From: a bacterium
Lineage (GTDB): Bacteria; Armatimonadota; UBA5829
NCBI GenBank assembly: GCA_021371935.1
Contig: JAJFVF010000019.1
Location: 87,268 to 151,267 of the forward strand
Length of the DNA: 64,000 nucleotides
Direction of reading: 5' to 3'
The notes below the pieces were generated by a model. It was not told the origin of the DNA, made no database searches, and saw only the letters and a program-made list of their open reading frames with translations. A program made the translations under genes and the position numbers. Positions 1 through 62,215 of this stretch are shown here, one piece after another. Position 1 is the first letter of the stretch; each line of letters opens with the position of its first letter.

Positions 1-28
1 TATTCACGTTCCTCGTGAATAATGCGGG
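1..28 (-). repeat. Partial copy of the ~75-80 bp double-hairpin element (hairpin 1 only, cut by window edge)
   Basis: TATTCACGTTCCTCGTGAATAATGCGGG is the reverse complement of the first hairpin in the copies at 22433 and 36994. Confidence 0.7.
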
Positions 29-2176
29 CTAGTCAAATAGGCTTAATGTCTGCTGATTGGCGGGATCCATGTGTTTCTTTGTCGGTGGTTTAGGAAACAA
101 GACATCGAAGTCCTCGCCAAACGCTTCCTTAAGTCGACTTGCGAATTTATAGAGTTTCTCCAGGAGGTAATGTCTATCCTCATCTCCAGCATAGTCACCC
201 GCCAGCCCGATTGAGCCGTCATTTTTCTCATAGATGCTCACATACTGACCGACTTTCATGCCCTTTGCAGCCTGTGCAAGCCGCTTTTTGCCTGTGGAGT
301 GGAAGGTCTTTTCTGTGATCCTTTCTCGCCTGGCAAATTTTTCTATACCGAGCTGACCATTGCTGATTTTTTCAGAGAGTGATTTGTATAGTTCGCCTGC
401 TTTGTCTTTTTCGCCTCGCAGCAGATATTCTGCAGTGCCGGATATGAAATCCAACCCGAACGGCTCATCCGCGCGTGATCTCAAAGCAGAACCTCTAAAT
501 GTCTTCTTGCCGTCGTATGATTCCAGCACATAGTTTTTGATCTTTACCGAGATCATAGCTTTGTAGCGACCGTCATGCGCCAGCCTGATGCCTTCGGGCA
601 GTGCCGAGCCGATGCGTTCGATATATTCGACTTCTTTTTCTTCGCTGTCGATATCATTTGGCGGGCTGAAATATACGCCATCGGTGTCCACTTCCACCAC
701 CATACTTCCCGCCTTTTCAAGTTCCTCGACTATCCGCTTGACCAGTTTCTGACCCGTAGTCGTGACCCTTGCGCCGGCGTCATGATCGTTAAAATTGAAC
801 GGTCCGGCCAGGTAGCCATAGAACGAGTTGATAAGGATTTTGAACGCGCTCTGCAGTCCATCCCAATATGCGTGTTCACGCCCCTGCGACTCTTTTGCCT
901 TGCGTTTGGCCGCCAGTCTCCTCTGCACCAGGTTCGCGAGGGCGGGCAAGAAAATATCCAGAGTATCGTTTTTCGGTTTGACCTTATGTGTGAGCATGAT
1001 ACTCGGATACAGACTCTCCACATCGCACTTGACTATATGCTCGATCACTCCAGCCGTGCGCACCTCCGTGTATCCACCCGGCAGCGTTTTTTGTTCGGAC
1101 TGCTCTGGGATAGCACAGCCCTTGCTGAGATAGTGCCGAATGAAGATGGAGTTGATTTTTTCGCCGGTGCCGGATGTCGCAGCACGCTCATATGTGTCGG
1201 GTATCATCTGAGTCAAATAGAACTCATACGGGCATACTATCCCCGCCAGCAGATCGGTCTCTCTGACATCTTGAGTAGTATACTTTTTGACCCGCTCGGG
1301 GTTGTCATGCCACTCCTGCGCAATCTTGTCGTGAGGGATAATTTCTCTATCGTCTTCCGCAATGCCCAGTGCCTTAGCGGCGGCCTTGAGAGAGTAGCTC
1401 GACAGACTCGCCCGTGACACATCCCACCTCTGCACTGCCAGCAGGGTGTCGATTATGTGCCTGCCATGGATATGAGCCGGGCTGAACGGCCTGGAGTAAT
1501 AGCCTATAGCGCTCTGCTGCTTCTGGCCGAATATAACTTCTGAACCATCGCGTCCGAATGCCAGCCTCACACCTCTATATTTCGCACGAGCCGCCATGTA
1601 AGCCAGGTCGAAGTCATATATGTTGTGGCCTTCTATTATGTCTGGGTCGCGTTCACGCACGCATGAGACAGTATCTCTCAATATCTGTGCTTCATCTCCA
1701 GTGATTAGGGTCTCGAAGCCTCGATTGTCCCTTATAGCGACCATGAATATCTCGTTTTCAGGCTTGTCGGGTGTGAGCGCGAGGGTTTCTATATCGAGCT
1801 GCATGCGGACGACATCGTCGAAATCCATTCCCTTAAAGAGAGTTTGGCCTGTCCTGGTCAGATACTGCTTTGCCGCGGTCGGCATAGCGATATGCGATGC
1901 GTGCGCGTCACGCAGCCAGTATCGTGCGGCGTTATATGAATTGCTGCTGTCGAACTCTGCCAGGAATCTATAGCCGCTGCCGTCAAGCTCTGTCCACTGC
2001 GCGTCAGTGATCTGGTGCTTCTCAGTCGTGAGTATCCAGCGTTTGAACGGCGTCTCGTGCGTTGTCATCGCGCCATCGATTCGTCGATAGATAATGGCGG
2101 TTTCCGTTCCGACTTCCACAGCAACTATTCCTTCAGTCGGGTCGCTGCCGAAAAGGATTTTCTCAACACTGTCCAT
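29..2176 (-). CDS. Family B DNA polymerase with 3'-5' exonuclease domain (715 aa)
   Basis: Translation shows Exo I DIETL and Exo II HNIYDFDLAYM. Polymerase motif A DVESLYPSIM, motif B KILINSFYGYLAG, motif C VVEVDTDGVY. Confidence 0.8.
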   Translation of the reverse strand: MDSVEKILFGSDPTEGIVAVEVGTETAIIYRRIDGAMTTHETPFKRWILTTEKHQITDAQWTELDGSGYRFLAEFDSSNSYNAARYWLRDAHASHIAMPTAAKQYLTRTGQTLFKGMDFDDVVRMQLDIETLALTPDKPENEIFMVAIRDNRGFETLITGDEAQILRDTVSCVRERDPDIIEGHNIYDFDLAYMAARAKYRGVRLAFGRDGSEVIFGQKQQSAIGYYSRPFSPAHIHGRHIIDTLLAVQRWDVSRASLSSYSLKAAAKALGIAEDDREIIPHDKIAQEWHDNPERVKKYTTQDVRETDLLAGIVCPYEFYLTQMIPDTYERAATSGTGEKINSIFIRHYLSKGCAIPEQSEQKTLPGGYTEVRTAGVIEHIVKCDVESLYPSIMLTHKVKPKNDTLDIFLPALANLVQRRLAAKRKAKESQGREHAYWDGLQSAFKILINSFYGYLAGPFNFNDHDAGARVTTTGQKLVKRIVEELEKAGSMVVEVDTDGVYFSPPNDIDSEEKEVEYIERIGSALPEGIRLAHDGRYKAMISVKIKNYVLESYDGKKTFRGSALRSRADEPFGLDFISGTAEYLLRGEKDKAGELYKSLSEKISNGQLGIEKFARRERITEKTFHSTGKKRLAQAAKGMKVGQYVSIYEKNDGSIGLAGDYAGDEDRHYLLEKLYKFASRLKEAFGEDFDVLFPKPPTKKHMDPANQQTLSLFD

Positions 2177-3268: not shown

Positions 3269-3316
3269 CCTGTCGTACAGAGTCAATATCAAATACAAAA
3301 TCTATGATTCGATGTT

Positions 3317-3346
3317 CGGGCGCGATATCCGATTGCGCCCGAAAGA
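3317..3346 (+). repeat. Hairpin repeat TTCGGGCGCGATATCCGATTGCGCCCGAA (copy 1 of 2)
   Basis: 9-bp GC-rich stem. Near-identical copy at 22342. Confidence 0.6.
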
Positions 3347-3369
3347 GAACAATCGTATAGGACAATAGT

Positions 3370-5090: not shown

Positions 5091-7301
5091 ATGGCCGATA
5101 TCGATTCTATAATCAGCAAGGTGTTGGAATATAATGACGCGGCGGATACGGATCTGATCCGCCGTGCATACGAGTTCGCATCTGTCGCTCATAAAGATCA
5201 GCTCCGCGAGACCGGTGACCCCTACATCACTCATCCTCTGGCGACCGCCGAGATTCTGACAGATCTCGAGATGGACACAGCCAGCATCGCGGCTGCTCTG
5301 CTCCATGACGTGGTCGAAGACCAAGACTATTCGATTGACGACATAAAGGATAAATTCGGTTCCGAGATAGCAGCGCTGGTCGACGGCGTCACCAAGTTGA
5401 AACTGGCCGATTTTGACGTTATGGATGATGCGCAGGAGCGCCAGGAGGTTCCGAAGAAGCGCCGTGCCGAGTTCAAGCGAAGCGCTGAGAACCTACGCAA
5501 AATATTCCTTGCCATGGCGCGCGATCTGCGTGTTATGGTCATCAAACTTGCCGACCGGCTGCACAATATGCGGACCCTGAGCGGTCTGCCTGAGGACCGT
5601 CAGAAGAAGGTGTCGCAGGAGACGATGCAGATATACGCTCCTCTTGCGCACAGGCTGGGTATCTGGAAGATCAAATGGGAGCTTGAGGACCTGGCGTTCA
5701 AGTATATTGAGCCGGAGGCCTATGCAAAGGTTGCGGATAAGGTCTCAGGCACGCGCGGCGACCGTGAGGACGACCTGGCCGAGGCCGTTGAGATGATCCA
5801 GAGACATCTGACCAAGGACGGCATTGATGCCACGATCCAGGCAAGGCCGAAGCATCTCTGGAGCATATATCAAAAGATGCTTCGTGAGGAAGTTGATTTC
5901 TCGGAGATATACGACCTTTCGGCAATCCGGGTTATCGTGAACAGGGTAGGCGAGTGCTATCATGCGCTGGGTCTGGTCCATGACCTTTGGATGCCGATCC
6001 CCGAGAGGTTTTCGGATTACATTGCAAAGCCCAAGTCGAACATGTATCAATCGCTGCACACCAAGGTGATCGGACCGAGGGGTGAGCCTTTGGAGGTGCA
6101 GATAAGGACCTGGGATATGCACAGGGTCGCTGACTTCGGTGTAGCTGCTCACTGGCAGTATAAGGAGCGTATGCGGTCGGGCGACGAGTTCGAGCGCAAA
6201 CTTTCGTGGCTGCGCCAGCAGCTCTTCGACTGGCAGTCCGACAGCAAGGATGCAGGTGAGTTCCTGCACTCGGTGATCAACGATCTGTTTACCGACCAGG
6301 TGTTTGTATTTACTCCACGGGGGGACGTTATTGACCTGCCGGCAGGCTCTACTCCAGTGGATTTCGCATATAGGATCCACAGCGATGTAGGCAACCACTG
6401 CGTCGGCGGCAAAGTAAACGGCCGGATCGTGCCTCTGACGTATAAGTTCAACAACGGCGACATAGTCGAGGTCATAACCCGGTCGAATGCACAGCCCAGC
6501 CTAGACTGGTTGGCATTTGTCAAAACTTCTCATGCCCGCAATCGTATAAAGGGTTTTTATAGGCGGGCACATTATGCCGAGTCTGTCACCAAAGGCCGCG
6601 AGATGCTCGACCGCGAGCTTGAGAAACTTGGTCATGAGCCCAAGGAACTGATAAAGGTCAGTGACATCACGGCAGTAGCCAAGGCGCTGAATTTGCAGAC
6701 TGAGGACGACCTGTATGCCGCGATAGGCTATGGCCATGTCGCGCTGGGCAGTGTGGTCAACAAGCTGAAAATACCTGAGCCGCCCAAGTCTGAGGCGCTG
6801 GTGATAGAGGCTCCCAAGTCCACTGGCAAGAGCAAACTCGCCGTCACCCTCGATGGGGTGAAAAACCTCATGATAACCCGGGCAAAGTGCTGCGCGCCGC
6901 TTCCGGGTGAGGAAGTTGTCGGCTATGTCTCCCGGGGTAAAGGCGTATCTCTGCATTCTGTGACATGCCCGAATGTCGCGGCCTATAGGGCGAGTGAGCC
7001 TGAGCGTCTGGTCGATATCAACTGGACCGAGGCCGATGGCGAGCGATATCCCACAAATATTGCGATACATGCCCTGAACCGCATGGGTCTGCTCAGTGAG
7101 ATTACGGCTATGTTTTCTGAGTCCAAGACAAACATAACTGGCGCCAAGGTCAAGACTATGCCTGACAAGACGGCGACAATCGATCTTACGGTCGATCTGC
7201 CGAATGTTCATGCGCTAAATGACCTTATGATCAAGGTCGGCAGCCTTTCCGATGTGCTCAAGATCGAGCGTGTGGCCGCCCACAGGTCAAAAAAAATTTG
7301 A
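5091..7301 (+). CDS. rel: Bifunctional (p)ppGpp synthetase/hydrolase RelA/SpoT
   Basis: HD hydrolase domain (HDVVED), synthetase domain, TGS and ACT C-terminal regions. Start placed at MADIDSII, after the recJ stop. Confidence 0.85.
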   Translation: MADIDSIISKVLEYNDAADTDLIRRAYEFASVAHKDQLRETGDPYITHPLATAEILTDLEMDTASIAAALLHDVVEDQDYSIDDIKDKFGSEIAALVDGVTKLKLADFDVMDDAQERQEVPKKRRAEFKRSAENLRKIFLAMARDLRVMVIKLADRLHNMRTLSGLPEDRQKKVSQETMQIYAPLAHRLGIWKIKWELEDLAFKYIEPEAYAKVADKVSGTRGDREDDLAEAVEMIQRHLTKDGIDATIQARPKHLWSIYQKMLREEVDFSEIYDLSAIRVIVNRVGECYHALGLVHDLWMPIPERFSDYIAKPKSNMYQSLHTKVIGPRGEPLEVQIRTWDMHRVADFGVAAHWQYKERMRSGDEFERKLSWLRQQLFDWQSDSKDAGEFLHSVINDLFTDQVFVFTPRGDVIDLPAGSTPVDFAYRIHSDVGNHCVGGKVNGRIVPLTYKFNNGDIVEVITRSNAQPSLDWLAFVKTSHARNRIKGFYRRAHYAESVTKGREMLDRELEKLGHEPKELIKVSDITAVAKALNLQTEDDLYAAIGYGHVALGSVVNKLKIPEPPKSEALVIEAPKSTGKSKLAVTLDGVKNLMITRAKCCAPLPGEEVVGYVSRGKGVSLHSVTCPNVAAYRASEPERLVDINWTEADGERYPTNIAIHALNRMGLLSEITAMFSESKTNITGAKVKTMPDKTATIDLTVDLPNVHALNDLMIKVGSLSDVLKIERVAAHRSKKI

Positions 7302-7626
7302 TATTTTATATTTTGTATTGATTATTTTGATCGGATCAACGAGCAAAAAGGCGTCTCAATTCCAGTCATTCCGAGCGAAGTCGAGGAATCTGCTGTGAGC
7401 CATTCTTTGTTATTTTGGCAATCGTGACAGGTGTTGTGCGCTTGATCGTCTGGGGTATCTCTCCCCGGACGCACATTAGGAGGAATATTTCCTCCATAAC
7501 CTTCGGTATATGGAGAATCTTGTTCCCGATATGTACTGTTCATTTCGGATATGGATTCCCGAAACATCAGATAGTGCCTATGAATTGTTGCCAGGCGAAC
7601 TGGGGCCAACATCGTGAGGAATAGAA

Positions 7627-10878: not shown

Positions 10879-12999
10879 ATGATAAGAGTCTCGCCAATTC
10901 TGCTTTGCGCTCTGGCCATCTGGATGTCTGTTTCCACATACGCTGCGCCGGAGAGGTCCGGGCCAAATGCAGACACACAATACGTTCCAAAATGGGGTTA
11001 TATTGACAGGACCGGCAATGTCGTAATCAAGTCGCAATTCGATGATGTGAGGATGTTTGTCGACGGATTGGCGCCGGTAGCGGTCGGCAGTTCGGAGAAA
11101 CGCAAGTGGGGTTATGTGGACAAGACCGGCAAGCTGGTCATTAAGCCGCAGTATGGTGACGCAGCGGAGTTCTCCGAAGGACTGGCGGCAGTACGGATCG
11201 GTGATGATGAAATGGACAAATGGGTCTATATCGATAAGTCGGGCAATATTGTCCTTAGACCGGACAAGCAGTTTTCCGGCAGCTTCCATGATGGTCTAGC
11301 TCTGATTGCCGATAACGGTTTTGGAAGTGGCAGTGATTGTATAACATACGGGGCAAGCGGTTATATCGACAAGACCGGCAAAGAGATCATAAAGCTGCAG
11401 TATGGGGGAGCAGACAGTTTCAGTGAAGGGCTTGCGGCGGTCTGGATAGGTCTTTACGCAGGCAAATGGGGCTATATCGACACCAGCGGCAAAGTTGAGA
11501 TAGACCCGGTGTTTGGCATTGCCCGCCCGTTCTCAGAAGGGCTGGCTTGTGTGCGGCTGGCGGATGATGCCGAGACATGGGGTTATATAGACAAGACCGG
11601 AAAGCTTGTAATCCGGCGGACGGAGACAAACACGCGATTCGACAGCAGTTGTGATTTCCATGATGGGCTTGCGATTGTGCGTAAAGATGACAGCTTCCGG
11701 GGTGGCGTAGGCTACATAGACAGGACCGGTAAGATCGCAATCAAGCAGCAGTATGATGATGCCGGCAGTTTTTCGGAGGGGTTGGCGCCCGTCGAAAAGG
11801 ATGCGTGCTGGGGTTTCATAGATGTGAATGGAGACTATGTCATCAAGTCGCTTGGTTTTGGCATCGACGCAAAGGGCTTCTCGGATGGACTTGCACCAAT
11901 TGGAATCCCGCATTCCGTGCCGAATCGAGCTGCGTATATCGACAAGAGCGGAAAGATGGTCTCAAAGCCGGGGATCACAAAAGTCGGCGTTGCATCCGAG
12001 GGTCTTGCGCCATTTAGAACCGGTGATAATGAGACCGGCAAATGGGGTTTTGCGGATATGGAAGGAAATGTCATCATTGAGCCCCAGTTCGATATCGTCG
12101 GACAGTTTTCCGGGGGGTTGGCAGTAGTCGCGACAGGAAAAGACACTTCATTCGGGTTCGGCTCCAAACAGACGGATATAAAGAGCGCGGACATGCCCAA
12201 ATACGGCTTTATTGACAAGACAGGCAAGATAGTAGTTGAGCTGAAATACCAGAGCGTTGGCAGCTTTTGCGAAGGCCTTGCGATGGTGATGAATTCCGAC
12301 GGCATAAAGATGGATAGCAACGGGTGCATGGACTGGGATAGTCCAAAGTATGGCTATGTGGACAAGACAGGCAGTCTTGCAATCGGACAGAAGTTCAGTT
12401 GGGCGTCAGACTTCTGTGAAGGTCGCGCCAATGTCAGTATTGGAGACGATGATGCAACTGGCTATATCGATTTGAATGGAAATATGGTTATCAAGCCGAA
12501 GTTTAATCATGTTAGGGACTTCTCCGATGGTCTGGCGGCAGTGAAGAGCGGAGCAAAATGGGGCTATATAGACAAGTCCGGCAAAGTCGTCATCAAACCA
12601 CAATTCGATGAGGTCGGCGACTTCTCCGAAGGCCTTGCACGCATCCGTATTGGCGATAACGAGAAAGCTAAGTGGGGTTACGTATCAAAGGCCGGTAAAG
12701 TGGTGGTCAAACCGAGATTCGGTGAAGCAGGTGACTTTTCCGAGGGGCTTGCCAGGGTTAGGGTCGGTCCCAACTATAACGACAAGTGGGGCTACATCGA
12801 CAAGACAGGCAAGATGACAATCAAGCCGCAGTTTCAGGAGGTCTCCAACTTTTTTGAGGGCATGGCGGCTGTTCAGTCCAACTACCGTTATGGCTACATA
12901 GACAAGACCGGCAAGTTCCTTATGAAACCACAATATAATGGTGCGGGCGACTTCTCGGGAGGCATAGCGGGTGTAGAGTGGTCGTCAAGGGGGTTTTAA
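10879..12999 (+). CDS. Secreted WG-repeat protein (about 18 repeats, signal peptide)
   Basis: N-terminal signal peptide, then iterated KWGYIDKTGKxVIKPQFD...FSEGLA units (WG-containing repeat). Confidence 0.8.
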   Translation: MIRVSPILLCALAIWMSVSTYAAPERSGPNADTQYVPKWGYIDRTGNVVIKSQFDDVRMFVDGLAPVAVGSSEKRKWGYVDKTGKLVIKPQYGDAAEFSEGLAAVRIGDDEMDKWVYIDKSGNIVLRPDKQFSGSFHDGLALIADNGFGSGSDCITYGASGYIDKTGKEIIKLQYGGADSFSEGLAAVWIGLYAGKWGYIDTSGKVEIDPVFGIARPFSEGLACVRLADDAETWGYIDKTGKLVIRRTETNTRFDSSCDFHDGLAIVRKDDSFRGGVGYIDRTGKIAIKQQYDDAGSFSEGLAPVEKDACWGFIDVNGDYVIKSLGFGIDAKGFSDGLAPIGIPHSVPNRAAYIDKSGKMVSKPGITKVGVASEGLAPFRTGDNETGKWGFADMEGNVIIEPQFDIVGQFSGGLAVVATGKDTSFGFGSKQTDIKSADMPKYGFIDKTGKIVVELKYQSVGSFCEGLAMVMNSDGIKMDSNGCMDWDSPKYGYVDKTGSLAIGQKFSWASDFCEGRANVSIGDDDATGYIDLNGNMVIKPKFNHVRDFSDGLAAVKSGAKWGYIDKSGKVVIKPQFDEVGDFSEGLARIRIGDNEKAKWGYVSKAGKVVVKPRFGEAGDFSEGLARVRVGPNYNDKWGYIDKTGKMTIKPQFQEVSNFFEGMAAVQSNYRYGYIDKTGKFLMKPQYNGAGDFSGGIAGVEWSSRGF

Positions 13000-13000
13000 A

Positions 13001-14152
13001 ATGAATAAACTGCGATCAGTCATTGGGTTGACACTATTCTTGCTTTCCTGCAGCGCTTTGAGCGCCTCATCCGCGCAGGTCCTGCTTCCCGTCAAACATG
13101 GCGACAAGTGGGGCTACATCAACAAGTCAGGGCAAATAGTTATAAAAGCTGTCTATGATGCGGCTGGAATGTTCGCAGAGGGGCTGGCTCCAGTGGGAAA
13201 AGGCAAGAATGACGCGATGAAATACGGCTATATAAACACCTCCGGCAAGATGATCATCAAACCACAGTTCAACAGCACGAGCGGTTTTCGTGAGGGGATG
13301 GCATCGGTGACCATGAAAGAACAGATCGGCTTCATCGATAAGACCGGCAAGCTGGTGATAAAGCCTCAATTTTCCTTTGCGGATGACTTCCATGAGGGTC
13401 TGACCCCAGTGTGCACAGGGACGCCGAGGACTGCGAAGTACGGCTACATAAACAAAACCGGGAAGATGGTCGTCAGCAAAAAGTTTGACTCAGCAGGCAA
13501 TTTTTCGCAAGGCCTTGCGCCTGTAGCCGTCGGCGATAAATGGGGCTACATCGATAAAACCGGCAAAATGATTATAGATATGCAGTTTGACGAGGCAAAC
13601 AGTTTCTCTGAGGGCTTGGCCGTAGTGTCGACAGGCAGGGTCTATTACAAGTCAGAGAAAACCGGCAAGGTTGATGAGAGCATAATCATGCAAGAGGGCA
13701 AGTGCGGATATATCGACAAAACCGGCAAGATTGTCATCGAACCGCGCTTCGGCTACGCCCAACCATTTTCGGATGGTCTTGCTGCTGTTATGACAGGCGA
13801 GATGAAGCCGGGGCGGAAATGGACGTGGGGATATATCGATAAGGCAGGCAAGTTTGTGATAGAGCCGAAGTTTCCTTTCGCCGAGAGTTTTTCTGAGGGA
13901 GTCGCGGCAGTGTGTGTCGGAGACTTCTCCATACCCTCCAAAGACATAAACGACTTTCCGAAATGGGGTTACATCGATAAAACCGGAAAAATGGTCATCA
14001 CGCCTCAGTTTTTAGGGATGCACCAAGGCAGCTTTTCAGGAGGCGCAGCGATGGTCAGTATGCAGTTTCTTTTTTCACCTGACAGCCATGCGGGTCCAAG
14101 CTACATAGACAAGACAGGCAAGTTCATTTGGAAAGACAGGAATACGCGCTGA
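13001..14152 (+). CDS. Secreted WG-repeat protein, paralog of the upstream gene
   Basis: Signal peptide plus the same KWGYI..KTGK..I.PQF repeat. Separated from the upstream paralog by 1 nt. Confidence 0.8.
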   Translation: MNKLRSVIGLTLFLLSCSALSASSAQVLLPVKHGDKWGYINKSGQIVIKAVYDAAGMFAEGLAPVGKGKNDAMKYGYINTSGKMIIKPQFNSTSGFREGMASVTMKEQIGFIDKTGKLVIKPQFSFADDFHEGLTPVCTGTPRTAKYGYINKTGKMVVSKKFDSAGNFSQGLAPVAVGDKWGYIDKTGKMIIDMQFDEANSFSEGLAVVSTGRVYYKSEKTGKVDESIIMQEGKCGYIDKTGKIVIEPRFGYAQPFSDGLAAVMTGEMKPGRKWTWGYIDKAGKFVIEPKFPFAESFSEGVAAVCVGDFSIPSKDINDFPKWGYIDKTGKMVITPQFLGMHQGSFSGGAAMVSMQFLFSPDSHAGPSYIDKTGKFIWKDRNTR

Positions 14153-17275: not shown

Positions 17276-17347
17276 CCTGGATTATACGCTTCCCGCATAA
17301 TCCAAGTCTCCGAGAACATTATTCACGTTCCTCGTGAATAATGCGGA
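17276..17347 (-). repeat. ~75-80 bp double-hairpin element, copy in reverse orientation
   Basis: CCTGGATTATACGCTTCCCGCATAATCCAAGTCTCCGAGAACATTATTCACGTTCCTCGTGAATAATGCGG. Both hairpins present, the second degenerate. Confidence 0.75.
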
Positions 17348-17622
17348 CTAGGCGGCTTACTGCAAGATTTGTCAGATTATAGCATCCTTACGGACACATT
17401 ACAATACCCTTTCAATTTAATATTTGAGATTTTTTATTTTATATTTGGCGAACTGGGTGAGGGGTTATTCGTCAATATTTCCACGTTCGGCATGCCGCTC
17501 TTGCTGACGCTCGATCTTGCGTCTGCGCTTGTGCATAGCTTTTTTATCAGGCTCGTGCGGTCCTGCCTTTAGAAAGTGGGCTTTTTGTGCAAAGAAAGAT
17601 TTTCCGGGTATTCTACGGCGCA

Positions 17623-22314: not shown

Positions 22315-22341
22315 ACTGATCGAAGTTGCTCCAGGTGCAGT

Positions 22342-22371
22342 GTTCGGGCGCGATATCTGATCGCGCCCGAA
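22342..22371 (+). repeat. Hairpin repeat TTCGGGCGCGATATCTGATCGCGCCCGAA (copy 2 of 2)
   Basis: Same as 3317-3346 with two loop substitutions. Confidence 0.6.
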
Positions 22372-22432
22372 AAAGAATCTCGCAAAAAAAGATTGCGCCA
22401 ATCCATTCGCAAACAGTAAGCGTTTCAATTAC

Positions 22433-22507
22433 ACCCGCATTATTCACGAGGAACGTGAATAATGCTCTCAGAGACCCGGATGATGCGGTAAGCGCATAAT
22501 CCGGGTA
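22433..22507 (+). repeat. ~75-80 bp double-hairpin element, forward orientation
   Basis: ACCCGCATTATTCACGAGGAACGTGAATAATGC (hairpin 1), then CCCGGATGATGCGGTAAGCGCATAATCCGGG (hairpin 2). Confidence 0.8.
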
Positions 22508-22724
22508 CAGTCATTCCGAGCTTGTAATCCGAATTGCAGAGTTTTATTCGTAAAGATGTAGCTGCGATTCGGATTAGCGAGGAACCTGCTTTTGAGCGCA
22601 ATAAACTACTCCTCATAGGTAATCATCAAACACGAGCAGTTGCCCCATGATTATGTGTTTGACACTCCAGGTTTCTGCGTGCTAGACTACGGGAAAACCT
22701 TGTCAATGTCGTGGGGTTAAAAAT

Positions 22725-25259: not shown

Positions 25260-26324
25260 ATGGAATTAAAGGAAATAGCTGCAAAAGCGGCGCAGTCAGG
25301 CGCCTCTGACATATTTCTGAAAGTCGGCTCGCCGCCGATGATGCGTCTCAACAGCGTTGTGGTCCCGCTCGATTCATATCCTGAACTGAAGGGTCAGGAC
25401 ACTGAAGCGCTTGCATACGGCATAATGACGCACGAGCAGATCGGTCGTTTCGAGCGCAGACATGAACTCGACCTCGCGTTTACAATAGACGATGTCGCAA
25501 GGTTCAGGGCGAATGTATATTACCAGCGCGGCACAATCGGCATGGTGCTGCGCATTGTGCCTCTCCAGATTCTTGGATTGAATGAGCTTGGCCTACCGGA
25601 GGGTATCAAGTCTCTTGCCGAGCAGAGGCAGGGACTTGTGCTTGTGACGGGTCCAACCGGCTGCGGTAAGTCCACGACCCTTGCTGCGGTGATTGACATC
25701 ATCAACTCCACTCGCAAGTGCAATATCATCACTGTCGAGGACCCGATTGAGTTCGTGCATCAGGACAAGCAGTCAATCGTCAGCCAGCGCGAGATCGGCA
25801 TCGATACCGATTCGTTCACCGATGCGCTCAAATATGTCGTCAGGCAGAGCCCGGACGTGATCCTGGTCGGCGAGATGCGTGATGTAGAGACTATGAACGT
25901 TGCTCTGGCAGCAGCGGAGACGGGTCACCTCGTATTTTCGACAGTCCACACATGCAGCGCTGCAGAGACGCTCGATAGAATAATGAATATGTTTCCTCCT
26001 CATGACAAACTGATGGTGTGTATGCGTCTGTCTGTATCACTGAAGGGTGTAGTTTCTCAAAAACTGATTCCGAGGATGGATAAAACCGGGCGGATAGCAG
26101 CCGTAGAAGTAATGATTGCAAACCCGACTATAAGCAAGCTGCTTGAGGAAGGGCGTTCATCACAAATATACCAGGCCATTTCCGAGGGTGAATATTGGGG
26201 TATGCAGACTATGAACCAGTGTCTTGACCGCTATTGCAAGGCCGGAATCATATCTGAAGATGAGGCTCTTGCAAGCGCTGGCAACTACACCGAACTCAAG
26301 CAGATGCTCCGACGAGCCCTCTGA
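25260..26324 (+). CDS. pilT: Type IV pilus twitching-motility ATPase PilT
   Basis: Walker A GPTGCGKST, and Asp box/His box of the PilT/GspE family. GAGGAAG Shine-Dalgarno. Confidence 0.8.
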   Translation: MELKEIAAKAAQSGASDIFLKVGSPPMMRLNSVVVPLDSYPELKGQDTEALAYGIMTHEQIGRFERRHELDLAFTIDDVARFRANVYYQRGTIGMVLRIVPLQILGLNELGLPEGIKSLAEQRQGLVLVTGPTGCGKSTTLAAVIDIINSTRKCNIITVEDPIEFVHQDKQSIVSQREIGIDTDSFTDALKYVVRQSPDVILVGEMRDVETMNVALAAAETGHLVFSTVHTCSAAETLDRIMNMFPPHDKLMVCMRLSVSLKGVVSQKLIPRMDKTGRIAAVEVMIANPTISKLLEEGRSSQIYQAISEGEYWGMQTMNQCLDRYCKAGIISEDEALASAGNYTELKQMLRRAL

Positions 26325-26325
26325 T

Positions 26326-26357
26326 TTAGTATTGAGTATATTGTATTGATTATTTGT
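26326..26357 (+). repeat. AT-rich post-stop motif TTTAGTATTGAGTATATTGTATTGATTATTTG
   Basis: Immediately after the pilT stop. Near-identical 35-mer after ilvN at 48985-49017. Related copy after rel at 7291-7325. Confidence 0.55.
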
Positions 26358-26397
26358 CTGTGAAGCGAAGCCGCATCGTGTCATTATAAATTGTACC

Positions 26398-36993: not shown

Positions 36994-37069
36994 ACCCGCA
37001 TTATTCACGAGAAACGTGAATAATGCTCTTGGAGACCCGGATTATGCGGGAAGCGCATAATCCGGGCTA
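36994..37069 (+). repeat. ~75-80 bp double-hairpin element, forward orientation
   Basis: ACCCGCATTATTCACGAGAAACGTGAATAATGC plus CCCGGATTATGCGGGAAGCGCATAATCCGGG. Confidence 0.8.
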
Positions 37070-37777
37070 ACCACACTGTATGCAGACGCACCCGAAGTCA
37101 AGCCCATAATCCTGAAACCCGAGTGCATGAGCCGTGCGCAGTGATGCGATATTGGTACGGTCCGCGCCCCAGGTGGCTATTTTGCCGTTATCGAGGATGT
37201 ATTTCACTGCTGCCGATACGGCGCTTTTTGCATGTCCCATGCCTCGATATTCCGAGAGAGTCTGCACCGTCAGGTCCCAGCCGACACCAGACAGTGGCTT
37301 CACTCCTGCCCACGAGACCACTCTGCCGTCCAAAATCTGACCGAATACCCTGCCTCCCCATTTGTTGTAGATACCGACAGCAATTTCGTCCATGTCGGTC
37401 ACATCGCGCACGTCGCCATTTGTCTGGTCAACAAAAGTTTCTCTGTCACAGTAGAGTCTGCACCCCTCGAACCAGAACTCAGGCTGTATGACAGGCGTCA
37501 ATGCAGCCTCAAGTGCCCGAGATGCATTTTCGTCAAGTGTTTTTGAGCCGATCAGCGCATTAGCGGCCGCTTCGTATAGATCGGGCAATACTGACACCAC
37601 CGCTCCAGTCCCTTTGCCTATCGAAAAGAGCGCAAGCGGCGCGCCCTTTGCGAACCTTATTCCGGTAATCTTTTCGCATTTGACGACCACCAGCCTGCCC
37701 GAGTTGAGATCATCCGGTGTGCATCCCAGTGCGGACGAGTAAAATTTGTCCAGTTGCATCACTGTATCGTTTGCCAT
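37067..37777 (-). CDS. GNAT-like acetyltransferase-fold protein (C-terminal domain)
   Basis: C-terminal GNAT-like motif EYRGMGHAKSAVSAAVKYILDNG. Last gene of the 37067-42102 operon. Confidence 0.55.
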   Translation of the reverse strand: MANDTVMQLDKFYSSALGCTPDDLNSGRLVVVKCEKITGIRFAKGAPLALFSIGKGTGAVVSVLPDLYEAAANALIGSKTLDENASRALEAALTPVIQPEFWFEGCRLYCDRETFVDQTNGDVRDVTDMDEIAVGIYNKWGGRVFGQILDGRVVSWAGVKPLSGVGWDLTVQTLSEYRGMGHAKSAVSAAVKYILDNGKIATWGADRTNIASLRTAHALGFQDYGLDFGCVCIQCG

Positions 37778-48480: not shown

Positions 48481-48984
48481 ATGAAACAACCAATGCAACA
48501 TACAATAACCGTGCTGGTTGAAAACAAGCCTGGTGTGCTCGCCAGGGTATCGGGTTTGTTTGCTCGGCGCGGGTTTAACATCGAATCACTGGCCGTCAGC
48601 ATCACCGACGACCCGACCATTTCGCGTATGTCGATCGTAGTGACGGGTGACGATGCCACACTAGATCAGATCAACAAACAGACTGACAAACTGATCGACG
48701 TAATCAAAGTTATAGACTACAGCGAGATACCGATAGTTGAGCGCGAGCTTGCGATGATAAAGGTCAATGCTGAGAACTCGCAGCGTGCAGAGATTATGCA
48801 GATAGTCGATATTTTCCATGCGAAGATCATCGATATAAGCAAGGTCACGTTTACGATAGAGGTGACGGGCAACACTGACAAGGTCGATGCAATTGAGCGG
48901 CTTTTGGAACCGTTCGGAATCAAGGAAATGGTCCGAACGGGCATGATCGCGATGGCTCGCGGCTCGATCACAGCAGCAAGCTGA
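48481..48984 (+). CDS. ilvN: Acetolactate synthase small (regulatory) subunit
   Basis: N-terminal ACT domain (ITVLVENKPGVLARVSGLFARRGFNIESL). Confidence 0.85.
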   Translation: MKQPMQHTITVLVENKPGVLARVSGLFARRGFNIESLAVSITDDPTISRMSIVVTGDDATLDQINKQTDKLIDVIKVIDYSEIPIVERELAMIKVNAENSQRAEIMQIVDIFHAKIIDISKVTFTIEVTGNTDKVDAIERLLEPFGIKEMVRTGMIAMARGSITAAS

Positions 48985-49017
48985 TTTAGTATTTAGTAAT
49001 TTGTATTGATTATTGTT
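48985..49017 (+). repeat. AT-rich post-stop motif TTTAGTATTTAGTAATTTGTATTGATTATTGTT
   Basis: Immediately after the ilvN stop. Confidence 0.55.
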
Positions 49018-49115
49018 TTAGGATGTCTGACATATTTTTTGAGAGGAAATAGAAGGAATCAGGCCGGAGATTATCCAACCTCAAACCTCTATCCTCTAAA
49101 ACAGGAGGAATATAC

Positions 49116-50753: not shown

Positions 50754-52310
50754 GTGGCAAGACGAATACAAATTTTTGATACGACGCTGCGCGACGGCGA
50801 GCAGTCACCCGGCGCGAGTATGAATATCGAGGAGAAGCTGGGGGTTGCAAAGCAGCTAGCGCGTCTAAAGGTGGATGTTATAGAAGCGGGCTTTCCGATT
50901 TCGAGCCAGGGCGATTTCGATGCCGTGAAGGCTATTGCCGAGACGATCAAGGGTCCGGCGATTGCAGGGCTTTGCCGCGCCGGAAAGATGGACATAGACC
51001 GTGCCTGGGAAGCTCTCAAGTTCACCAAGAAGCCGGTTATTCACACGTTTATTGCCACGTCCGACATCCATCTTGAAAAGAAGCTCAAAAAGACACGCGA
51101 CGAGGTGCTCGATATAGCTGTTATGGCCGTGAGGCATGCAAAGGGCTACTGCGAAGATGTCGAGTTTTCAGCCGAGGATGCGGCACGTTCCGATTTCGAT
51201 TATCTATGCCAGGTTGTCGAGGCCGTGATCGATGCGGGCGCGACTGTCGTGAACATACCTGACACTGTCGGCTATGCCATCCCGAGCGAGTATGGAGCAA
51301 TGATCGGCAGGTTGATAGAGCGTGTACCCAACTCAAATAAAGCGATTTTCAGTGTTCACTGTCACAATGACCTCGGCCTTGCCACGGCGAACTCTCTGGC
51401 AGCGGTCGCCAACGGCGCAGGTCAGATCGAGTGCACGATCAATGGCATAGGCGAGCGAGCGGGTAATGCTGCTCTTGAAGAGGTCGTGATGGCTCTCAAC
51501 ACACGTCCCGACCTGTTTGGTGCCAAAACCGGCATCAACACGACCGAGATATACCGTGCCAGCAGGATGGTCAGCGATGTGACGGGTCTTTCGGTCCAGG
51601 TCAATAAAGCGATTGTCGGCGCGAATGCGTTTGCCCATGAGGCTGGGATTCATCAGCACGGCGTGTTGCAGGAGAAGCGAACGTACGAGATTATGGATGC
51701 GGAGTCGATAGGTCTTGCCTCAAACAAGCTGGTTTTGGGCAAGCACTCCGGCAGACATGCTTTCGAGGGCAAGCTGAAGTCACTGGGTTTCAGCCTGAGC
51801 AAAGTTGAGCTCGACAAGGCATTCGAGCGGTTCAAGGCATTGGCGGACAAAAAGAAAGAGATATTTGACGAGGACTTGGAGACGATTGTTGCGGACGAGG
51901 TATATGTGATTCCGTCGAAGTATCAGCTCGTCTATATGAATGTGATGACCAGTCTTCACGGCATCCCTACGGCAACGATCCGCCTCAAGACTGACGAGAC
52001 CGAAATTGTGGAGGCATGCGTAGGTGTAGGGTCTGTCGATGCGGTTTACAAGACGATCGATAAGATGGTCGATGCGCAATATCATTTGGTGGATTTCAAT
52101 ATTAAGTCTGTTACGGGCGGCACCGATGCTCTTGGCGAAGTCACGGTCAAGCTCGGAGCTATGAACGGCGAGGTATATACGGGCCGCGGGGCGTCGTTGG
52201 ATATAGTCGAGGCGAGCGCAAAGGCATATCTGAATGCAGTAAACAAACTCGTTTATTACGAAGAGAAACGCGGCAATGGCGGCAAACCCAAAGACAAAGC
52301 AATCCTCTAA
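50754..52310 (+). CDS. leuA: 2-isopropylmalate synthase
   Basis: [21 protein letters not shown] and C-terminal LeuA dimerisation/regulatory domain. GTG start 5 nt after GAGGTG. Confidence 0.85.
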
Positions 52311-53078
52311 TTTTATATTTGGGATTTTATATTGAGTATTTCAAATACAGCTTGTTGATGGGTGGCGATCTCCGAATCGCCACCCGAGTGCCAGTTGGGA
52401 TCTCCGAATCCCGAAAACGTAGGAACAACGAATGTCGCATCGATTCAAAGTTGTGCGAGGCGGACCATACCCGCATTTCGTGACATTGACGATTGTGCGC
52501 TGGTATCCCGTTTTCATTTCTGGTTCGTATTTTCGAATCATACTAGACAGCATAAAGCACTTAAGGGAGAGTCGTGGACTGCTGATACATGCCTATGTGA
52601 TAATGCCGACGCATGTGCATGCTATTATCACGGCCACAAATGATGATTTGTCTGCGATAGTCAGAGATTTCAAGCGTTTTACGGCTCGTAGCATAGAGAA
52701 CCAAGCTGATGGTGATGGTAATAGGTTGCTATGCTGGATATTTAGGAACAGCAATAAAGACGAGCGTGCTCAGTCAAAAGTATGGCAGGATGAATTCCAT
52801 CCTGAGGTTATATATACACGTGATCGTTTTATGCAAAAGGCGAATTATATTCATGACAATCCGATCCGCAAGGGCTTGGCGAAGATGGCGGATCATTATT
52901 ACTATTCAAGTTTTATGGCTTTTGATCGTGCTGAAATGGATCCAATAGATATTGACTGGCTTGAATGGTAACATCCGATAGCTTTGCGGATTCAGAGATC
53001 CGCTCTGGCTTTAGGTTGACGATTCGGAGATCGTCAACCAGCCTTTGATTTTATATTAGGATTTTATATTGAGTATTG
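52311..53078 (+). mobile_element. RAYT unit: 30-bp AT-rich direct repeats, inverted REP hairpins, REP-associated tyrosine transposase gene
   Basis: Left end TTTTATATTTGGGATTTTATATTGAGTATT. Right end TGATTTTATATTAGGATTTTATATTGAGTATT. Hairpins GGGTGGCGATCTCCGAATCGCCACCC and TTGGGATCTCCGAATCCC on the left. GCGGATTCAGAGATCCGC and GGTTGACGATTCGGAGATCGTCAACC on the right, with the core in reverse complement. Confidence 0.7.
52432..52971 (+). CDS. REP-associated tyrosine transposase (IS200/IS605-like TnpA, RAYT)
   Basis: HAYVIMPTHVHAII (HxH motif), a downstream conserved Tyr region, and size 179 aa. AGGAACAACGAATG Shine-Dalgarno. Confidence 0.75.
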   Translation: MSHRFKVVRGGPYPHFVTLTIVRWYPVFISGSYFRIILDSIKHLRESRGLLIHAYVIMPTHVHAIITATNDDLSAIVRDFKRFTARSIENQADGDGNRLLCWIFRNSNKDERAQSKVWQDEFHPEVIYTRDRFMQKANYIHDNPIRKGLAKMADHYYYSSFMAFDRAEMDPIDIDWLEW

Positions 53079-53474
53079 AATCTGATGGTTGATAGGGCAA
53101 GGGCAGTCATTATCGAAGACTCTAGGGTGCTCCTGATGCACCGCTGCAAGTCCGGGCGAGAGTATTATTCATTTCCGGGCGGCGGAATAGAGCCTGGTGA
53201 AAGTCCTGAGCAGGCTTGTATTCGCGAGGTCCTTGAGGAGACAGGCCTTGATGTCGAGATAGTGTCATGCCTGGCTGAAAATGATTTCAATGGTCAGAAT
53301 GAGTCTTTCTATCTGGTCAAAAAGCTCTCCGGCGAGGTAAGGCTCGGTGGTCCAGAACTAGACAGATTGAGCGATGATAATCTTTACGAGCCTATGTGGG
53401 TTCCGATAGACCGTATGGCTGAGTTGCCGGTATTTCCGAAGCATGTGGCCGAAATGGTTGCAATGCATATTTGA
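53076..53474 (+). CDS. NUDIX hydrolase
   Basis: Nudix box GGGIEPGESPEQACIREVLEETG. Start is either TTG at 53076 or ATG at 53085. Confidence 0.75.
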   Translation: MNLMVDRARAVIIEDSRVLLMHRCKSGREYYSFPGGGIEPGESPEQACIREVLEETGLDVEIVSCLAENDFNGQNESFYLVKKLSGEVRLGGPELDRLSDDNLYEPMWVPIDRMAELPVFPKHVAEMVAMHI

Positions 53475-61933: not shown

Positions 61934-62215
61934 TGACAATGTTTCCTGATCCTGATCGTCCGGGGATTTCTGCCTCGGACGGGTTTTGCGAGGGGCATTC
62001 TTGCCCCGGCGTTTTGCACAGGGCAGCCTTTGATTGCGCGCGATATCTGGTCGTGTGCGAAACAGAATCTCGGTATTTCAAATTCCTGATTGCCGATCCT
62101 GCTGCCAGATCGTTCGAGTGACTCTTGCTTCGGACAGACAGCCGACCCGACAAAAAGGGAGACACAGATAACCTCCATGTCTCCCGCATATTCAGTGTTT
62201 ACGTATTAACCGTAT

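Follow-up and report, generated by a model that had tools for sequence, protein, structure and literature searches.

The double hairpins of the 64-kb window (the whole stretch of Armatimonadota DNA analysed here) are best read as tiny, gene-less transposable elements (MITEs) with IS1380-type ends and not as a small-RNA family, a reading to which we give a probability of roughly 80%. Since the element contains no ORF, it was classed as IS1380-derived without being an insertion sequence (IS) itself. Judged at the sequence level, the family would answer the description of a MITE in every respect: its members are short (72-73 nt) and without coding capacity, carry terminal inverted repeats, are bordered by a duplication of fixed length, occur in many dispersed copies and have ends in common with IS1380-family ISs, which are autonomous elements. 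An earlier note on this DNA had left a MITE, a REP doublet and a structured small RNA as options; the 4-bp target-site duplication, the IS1380-type ends, the many dispersed copies and the lack of coding capacity bear out the first of them.

The window holds three complete copies of 72 nt, whose limits were set by alignment and by the flanking repeats, and one copy cut by the window start (Table 1); copies are named here by their first position. A covariance model of 27 family members, run with its filters off, found exactly these four loci, and both it and the pattern matches confirmed the four places given in the earlier note, as well as the occurrence of copies in both orientations. Each half-pattern occurs three times in the window and was absent from 100 dinucleotide-preserving shuffles. 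Hairpin 1 of the window copies is a 12-bp stem (GCATTATTCACG, a 5-nt loop, CGTGAATAATGC), and hairpin 2 is a stem of 11-13 bp (CCCGGATTATGCG, 5 nt, CGCATAATCCGGG), with about 9 nt between the two. Forward-strand folding gave -39 to -44 kcal/mol, with z values of -5.8 to -9.5. The two adjacent stem-loops described previously are therefore present, but not all of them are perfect, as hairpin 2 of copy 22434 contains one mismatch and copy 17276 contains G.T pairs. The latter is the most diverged copy of the window, with five C-to-T changes and one G-to-A change on the element strand. The terminal inverted repeats, CCCGCATTATTCA and the reverse complement CCCGGATTATGCG, are identical at 10 of 13 positions.

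Table 1. Positions of the double hairpins and of neighbouring features in the window.
Feature	Position	Strand	Remarks
Complete element, 72 nt	22434-22505	+	alignment and flanking repeats; covariance model 80.6 bits
Complete element, 72 nt	36995-37066	+	covariance model 91.3 bits
Complete element, 72 nt	17276-17347	-	covariance model 86.1 bits
Copy cut by the window start	1-28	-	shows only the left end and the greater part of hairpin 1
Hairpin 1 stem of copy 22434	22437-22448 / 22454-22465	+	hairpin 1 opens with left end CCCGCATTATTCACG
Linker TCTCAGAGA, then hairpin 2 CCCGGATGATGCG-GTAAG-CGCATAATCCGGG	to the end of copy 22434	+	
TACA, 5' copy of the 4-bp target-site duplication	22430-22433		flank of copy 22434
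TACA, 3' copy of the 4-bp target-site duplication	22506-22509		flank of copy 22434
Flanking 4-mers TTAA / CTAA	36991-36994 / 37067-37070		copy 36995
Flanking 4-mers CTAG / CTAT	17351-17348 / 17275-17272		copy 17276
Flanking 4-mer CTAG	32-29		truncated copy 1-28
ORF, family-B DNA polymerase	29-2176		TAG stop within the CTAG flank of copy 1-28
ORF, GNAT gene	37067-37777	-	TAG stop is the CTA at 37067-37069, beside copy 36995
234-nt direct repeat, 89% identity	35818-36051 / 37086-37319		first copy reproduces a fragment of the GNAT gene's 3' part
ORF, 243 aa	36147-36878		between the 234-nt repeats; no Pfam match
Sigma-70-like site	17404-17376	-	TTGTAA, 17 nt, TG-TATAAT; 10/12
RAYT-like ORF, 179 aa	52432-52971		phmmer against E. 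coli RayT, E 5e-9; Pfam Y1_Tnp, E 9e-6
58-nt inverted repeats	52359-52416 / 52983-53040		two small hairpins each, core GATCTCCGAATC
AT-rich direct repeat, about 37 nt	52304-52340 / 53042-53077		GC falls to 0.46 over 52304-53077
Third hairpin family	3313-3354, 22341-22382, 62031-62072		GGGCGCGAT-ATCTG-ATCGCGCCC, then GAAA.AGAA
AT-rich repeats, ATTTAGTATTTAGTAATTTGTATTGATTATT-like	7296-7336, 17415-17455, 26324-26364, 48984-49024, 52310-52364, 53054-53094		
Tandem coding repeats of 102-114 nt, 15-22 in number	10990-14011		in ORFs 10879-12999 and 13001-14152

The flanking duplications have decayed in the window, where one pair is perfect and two agree at 3 of 4 positions. The perfect pair, TACA/TACA, is a direct repeat of non-consensus sequence, which argues for a duplication over a part of the element itself. 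The most extensive evidence comes from the Armatimonadota MAG JBBRAE01, whose 51 loci contain 53 doublets, every one of 73 nt and with a mean pairwise identity of 91%. Their layout is NTAN, CCCGCATTATTCACG-N5-CGTGAATAATGCTCTG, TTAG or CTAG, CGAAAGCTTTATTCG-N5-CGAATAAAGCGGG, NTAN; that is, two related hairpin modules of about 34 nt arranged tail to tail, with terminal inverted repeats (CCCGCATTATTCACG and CCCGCTTTATTCGTG) identical at 12 of 15 positions. Solo modules and single full palindromes occur beside the doublets. The same 4-mer stands on both sides in 42 of the 53 doublets, compared with 17.9 on average and 28 at most when the pairing was shuffled (10,000 trials), and these matching 4-mers are a 4-bp target-site duplication. 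They comprise CTAA (24), CTAG (11), CTAT (3, from two different sequence subfamilies), TTAG (2), ATAG and CTAC. An inverted-repeat reading fits 11 pairs only, namely the 11 palindromic CTAG pairs. A direct repeat of fixed length that differs from copy to copy is characteristic of a DDE transposase, which inserts its DNA through a staggered cut; to our knowledge, transposition by HUH enzymes (RAYT or IS200/IS605) makes no such repeats.

In the Cyclobacteriaceae MAG JALSJF01, the same left end opens elements that vary in length from about 135 to 330 bp, the fullest copies measuring 254 bp, and that close with a second terminal palindrome, CGAAAAATTCATATGAATTTTTCGGG. Matching 4-mers flank 16 of 19 copies, with TTAA in 13, TTAG in two and CTAA in one. 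Inside some of these composite MITEs (e.g., L008:2965-3218, L025:755-1007 and L100:3104-3357) lie additional palindromes with TTAA on both sides, TGATGTAAATTAACTG...CAGTTAATTACATCA, an arrangement suggestive of nested insertions.

To obtain the distribution of the family, the hairpin-1 core, TTATTCACG-N5-CGTGAATAA, was searched for in GTDB genomes, with each species represented by one genome. The core was found in at least 120 stretches, and the matches listed came mostly from three Armatimonadota MAGs: JBBRAE01 (at least 51 stretches), JANYKG01 (at least 22) and CAVQDB01 (at least 3). JALSJF01 contributed at least 38, and a Holophagae MAG and five other MAGs at least one each; in four of these five, there was no similarity outside the searched core. 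Additionally, the Holophagae MAG contains single palindromes with the same end (CCCGGATTATTCACGAAGTTCGTGAATAATCCGGG) at L019:4837-4871 and about 5650-5730, at least two within 1 kb. As this is an Acidobacteriota genome, the end type occurs in at least three phyla. No copies were found in a plasmid collection by blastn or in viral contigs by pattern scan. The proteins of the window are 56-69% identical to those of JBBRAE01, with orthologous genes at loci L013, L009 and L084, and this identity, like the scan matches, points to an Armatimonadota bacterium as the probable source of the window; at this level of protein identity, the intergenic DNA of these loci is too diverged to be aligned for a comparison with empty sites.

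Hairpin 1 is nearly constant across genomes, with the caveat that the search pattern itself prescribed 9 bp of it as the core. The sequence of hairpin 2 varies by genome and its palindromy is kept. When 27 doublets were aligned, 10 of 23 predicted pairs, all of them in hairpin 2, proved to have changed on both sides between lineages with pairing kept. The earlier note had named copies restricted to this region, or stems without covariation, as observations that would speak against a mobile or RNA family; the copies are instead widely spread and the stems covary. This covariation by itself is no pointer to RNA, being expected equally for a shared protein-binding sequence or for a role as a DNA hairpin. 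Additionally, the loop is in reverse complement in about 10% of the JBBRAE01 copies while the rest of the element is unflipped (AGNAG in 42 and CTNCT in 4 for hairpin 1; CTTCA in 41 and TGAAG in 5 for hairpin 2), with examples at L076:7058, L060:5238 and L052:5806. These flipped loops, of a kind typical for palindromes, suggest inversion through the palindrome at the level of DNA.

Ends of the IS1380 family start with CC, and its duplications are 4-5 bp according to the ISfinder description. The MITE ends have the form CCCGC...SCGGG with a 4-bp duplication. Based on the duplications at TTAA/CTAR and the CCC...GGG tips, the IS1380 family, the bacterial relatives of piggyBac, was considered as the source. 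IS1380 has been placed as the prokaryotic outgroup of piggyBac (PMC10813416), and piggyBac itself makes TTAA duplications and carries subterminal palindromes that are bound by its cysteine-rich C-terminal domain (PMC5861402). Among annotated IS1380-family elements of plasmids, ISEcp1 has the ends CCTAGATTCTACGT and CCTAAATTCCACGT, and IS1678 of E. faecium reads GATAG, CCTGAATAATTCATA...TATGAATTATTCAGG, GATAG, with a duplication of 5 bp. Four IS1380 transposases were aligned and used to scan metagenomes, which gave 80 loci, with both ends placed in 58. One end type was common to 30 full-length IS1380-family ISs of about 1.63-1.73 kb (60 termini), reading CCTGAATTATTCACGG, CCTGAATTATTCATGA, CCCGGATTATTCATGA or CCCGAATTATTCATGG.

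The outer 15 nt of the MITE, CCCGCATTATTCACG, resemble these terminal inverted repeats (e.g., CCTGAATTATTCACG and CCCGGATTATTCATG), with up to 13-14 of 15 positions identical. At a threshold of 12 of 15, the left end of the window copies matched 28 of the 60 IS1380 termini (best 13/15), the Cyclobacteriaceae left end 29 (best 14/15), the JANYKG01 right end 54 (best 14/15) and the right end of the window copies none (best 11/15). As a control, only 43 of the 449,698 15-mers in the IS1380 loci reached 12/15 against the window left end, and 28 of these 43 were mapped IS tips; the window left end thus matches IS termini specifically, and the match is anchored to the tip beside the duplication. Several ISs have a left end of the ...CACG type and a right end of the ...CATG type, the same pattern as in hairpins 1 and 2 of JANYKG01. 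Left-end hairpins that include the terminal repeat were found in the full-length ISs L138, L160, L148 and L152, and the left ends of L148 and L152 have two adjacent hairpins each. The covariance model gave weak matches at two left ends in the IS1380 loci (E 0.15-0.2). From the match of the outer ends to IS1380 terminal repeats, we infer that each hairpin consists of one such end and its inverted copy.

Those full-length ISs whose ends are most similar have duplications of 5 bp, clean in 11 of about 24 cases, whereas the MITEs make 4-bp duplications. The cognate transposase is therefore probably a different, unsampled member of the family. No IS1380-type transposase ORF was found in the window or in 120 loci of 8 kb, about 0.9 Mb in all, using phmmer and an HMM of four sequences with E up to 10. 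Among the loci from the same genomes there was no full-length IS with exactly these ends, and all-against-all blastn gave no IS-sized repeats in the Armatimonadota loci. Pairs of elements 0.7-3 kb apart were considered as full-length ISs or RAYT cassettes and rejected, as the genes between them are ordinary host genes, those for hicAB, a STAS protein and cytochrome c among them. In one such case (L006:2319-2799), a hicA/hicB-like toxin-antitoxin pair, recognised by eye from the translations, lies between two inverted doublets 759 nt apart; this arrangement may be due to chance or may be a composite mobilisable unit.

The difference in duplication length also speaks in favour of a MITE moved by a different DDE family, one with 4-bp duplications at targets of the YTAR type, such as the IS5 group or IS701. 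IS5 makes 4-bp duplications at CTAA/CTAG; nevertheless, its end, GGAAGGTGCGAATAAG, does not fit the MITE ends. The duplications of IS701 are exactly 4 bp, and its end consensus is ---YACT-Y--YR (PMC2266710); since this consensus does not fit the MITE ends, IS701 was rejected as the source. Against such a family as a whole stand the tip-anchored matches of the MITE ends to IS1380 termini, and we regard it as quite improbable.

Several features of the family recall REP/REPIN-type palindromes, which a RAYT (HUH/Y1 transposase) mobilises in single-stranded form. Like BIMEs and REPINs, the family comprises intergenic palindromic doublets that occur in either orientation, solo hairpin modules accompany them, and a RAYT-like protein is encoded in the window. 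A RAYT gene characteristically has REPs of its own on either side, and REP/REPIN doublets have no target duplication and carry a conserved GTAG/GTGG tetranucleotide foot in inverted arrangement. On either side of the RAYT-like gene of the window stand 58-nt inverted repeats built from other hairpins, whose core GATCTCCGAATC occurs four times in the window, always in these flanks, and which share no sequence with the double-hairpin family (covariance model E 0.92). The 4-mers that border the double hairpins are direct repeats specific to each copy, a GTAG-type foot is absent, and the ends match those of the DDE-type IS1380 family. Based on the hairpins that the RAYT-like gene has of its own and on the target duplications, the REP-doublet option of the earlier note was rejected, and we consider movement by a RAYT to be highly improbable.

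Selection of the hairpins as RNA, in the form of small RNAs, 3'-UTR stabilisers or terminators, would account for the strong folds and the covarying hairpin 2. All four window copies are oriented as the upstream gene, and copy 17276 keeps its pairs through G.U on one strand only (-39.5 versus -30.6 kcal/mol) and has a promoter-like site immediately upstream. Nevertheless, over 55 scorable copies the orientation relative to the upstream gene was 32 same to 23 opposite, which is not significant. The non-Watson-Crick pairs in the JBBRAE01 stems were 7 of the G.U type, 8 of the A.C type and 7 others, and the balance of the first two favours neither strand. No Rfam family was matched at the gathering threshold, the best permissive match (E 0.078) being far below its cut-off. 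No window copy was called by a terminator scan or is followed by a run of T, in agreement with the lack of a T-tract reported before. The random orientation, the balanced mismatches and the lack of an Rfam match and of a T-tract point to a MITE acting at the DNA level, as do the flipped loops, and the covariation is equally expected if both arms fit one protein-binding sequence; the small-RNA option was thus not supported, and a structured RNA is in our view very improbable. The sigma-70-like site of Table 1 lies about 30 nt upstream of element 17347-17276, and no obvious gene follows it on the minus strand.

Compatible with the MITE reading is a use of some copies by the host, in which stop-adjacent copies would serve as 3'-end hairpins or as barriers between converging genes. 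REP and Correia elements have secondary roles of this kind. No copy lies inside a called ORF, although the ORF calls were crude; the window copies are all intergenic, as first described, and located at gene 3' ends, with two of them directly abutting a stop codon. In total, 18 of 57 copies, about a third, were found by script to abut directly the stop of an ORF of at least 100 aa, and the truncated window copy is an additional case by direct reading. However, this position is accounted for by a TAA- or TAG-containing target together with selection against insertions within genes, and the orientation is random. Host use appears unlikely to us.

The proposed mechanism starts from the terminal inverted repeats, the outer ~15 nt of each side (CCCGCATTATTCACG on the left and, as reverse complement, CCCGGATTATGCG on the right), which would be recognised by the transposase. 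In each hairpin, the end is followed by a 5-nt loop and then by an inverted copy of the end, so forming two adjacent palindromes. A transposase encoded elsewhere in the genome, for which both the identity and the action in trans are putative, would bind the two outer ends and excise the element. Insertion would take place at NTAN, mostly CTAA or CTAG and, in the Cyclobacteriaceae MAG, TTAA, through a 4-bp staggered cut that duplicates the 4-mer. Insertions within genes would be lost, while at a target containing TAA or TAG the duplication would regenerate the stop codon; such targets, together with the loss of in-gene insertions, would leave about a third of the surviving copies abutting a stop. 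The ends may be doubled for binding by a transposase dimer, as for the C-terminal domain of piggyBac on subterminal palindromes. Alternatively, the doublet may represent two minimal elements end to end, whose inner tips have decayed, with GCTCTG and CGAAAGC replacing GCGGG and CCCGC. A length of 72 nt is very short for joining both ends in one complex, and this counts against the main explanation.

Other repeats accompany the family in the window. The earlier note had placed one copy exactly at a duplication junction, but the 234-nt repeat begins about 20 nt beyond element 36995, which lies with the 243-aa ORF between the two repeats. The duplication was considered as a product of this element and rejected, as it is a partial gene copy with no sign of element involvement. 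A direct AT-rich repeat brackets the RAYT cassette, as if the cassette had been inserted into the motif or had duplicated it. The stem of the third hairpin family resembles a RAYT-flanking hairpin, GGGTGGCGAT-CTCCGA-ATCGCCACCC, and one copy lies about 50 nt upstream of element 22434; this family may represent dispersed REPs of the window RAYT. The ATTTAGTATTTAGTAATTTGTATTGATTATT-like AT-rich repeats begin at, or within a few bases of, the stops of plus-strand ORFs (ends 7301, 26324, 48984 and 52310), and may be a lineage-specific 3'-end or terminator-like signal. The tandem coding repeats encode a KWGYIDKTGKVVIKPQF-like peptide and, by eye, the two ORFs that contain them look like a candidate pair of WG-type beta-repeat proteins.

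Among known systems, the elements share with IS1380-family ISs (ISEcp1, IS1678 and the metagenomic L136-L166) ends that start with CC, the motif CCYGNATTATTCAYG and short duplications at A+T-rich, TA-containing targets, and some of these ISs have left-end hairpins. The elements differ from them in having no transposase gene and a length of 72-73 nt versus about 1.65 kb, as well as in the doubling of both ends into full hairpins and in a 4-bp duplication where the sampled ISs have 5 bp. With the eukaryotic piggyBac and its MITEs they have in common the 4-bp duplication (TTAA in the Cyclobacteriaceae elements), the CCC...GGG tips and the palindromes just inside the ends; unlike piggyBac, they reside in bacteria, their target is relaxed to NTAN (CTAA, CTAG) and their end sequence is dissimilar. 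The bacterial MITEs Correia (Neisseria), RUP and ERIC are small, non-coding, multi-copy and foldable, with inverted ends. The double hairpins resemble them in a target duplication that contains TA and in intergenic placement, and depart from them in the source IS family, in being much shorter and in forming two hairpins instead of one long hairpin. With REP, BIME and REPIN sequences they share dispersal as extragenic palindromes, singlets and doublets, in both orientations, but they differ in that their target is duplicated and a conserved GTAG foot is lacking. The open-access literature gave no report linking IS1380 to MITEs, searches with element sequence strings returned chance primer matches only, and repetitive extragenic palindromic elements of Armatimonadetes gave no literature match.

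For annotation, the double hairpins should be masked as mobile-element remnants and not called as small RNAs or terminators. Copies of the family, many of which are found on contigs of the Cyclobacteriaceae MAG, probably contribute to fragmented MAG assemblies. With this finding, IS1380 gains a MITE family in Armatimonadota, a phylum that has received little study, with related elements in a Cyclobacteriaceae MAG, and the combination of CCC...GGG tips with a 4-bp duplication at TTAA/CTAR directly parallels piggyBac in a bacterial setting. A more tentative proposal, which we put forward as somewhat doubtful, is that the elements reflect an uncharacterised bacterial branch of the IS1380/piggyBac lineage, with duplications of exactly 4 bp at TTAA/CTAR, CCC...GGG tips and ends doubled into 35-bp palindromes. 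If so, the 72-nt elements and the singlets of 35-43 nt would be among the smallest mobile DNAs and would define minimal requirements in cis. The 72-nt element offers a natural minimal substrate for studying the end requirements of an IS1380-type transposase, and its stop-containing target illustrates how a transposon can fill gene-dense genomes without breaking genes.
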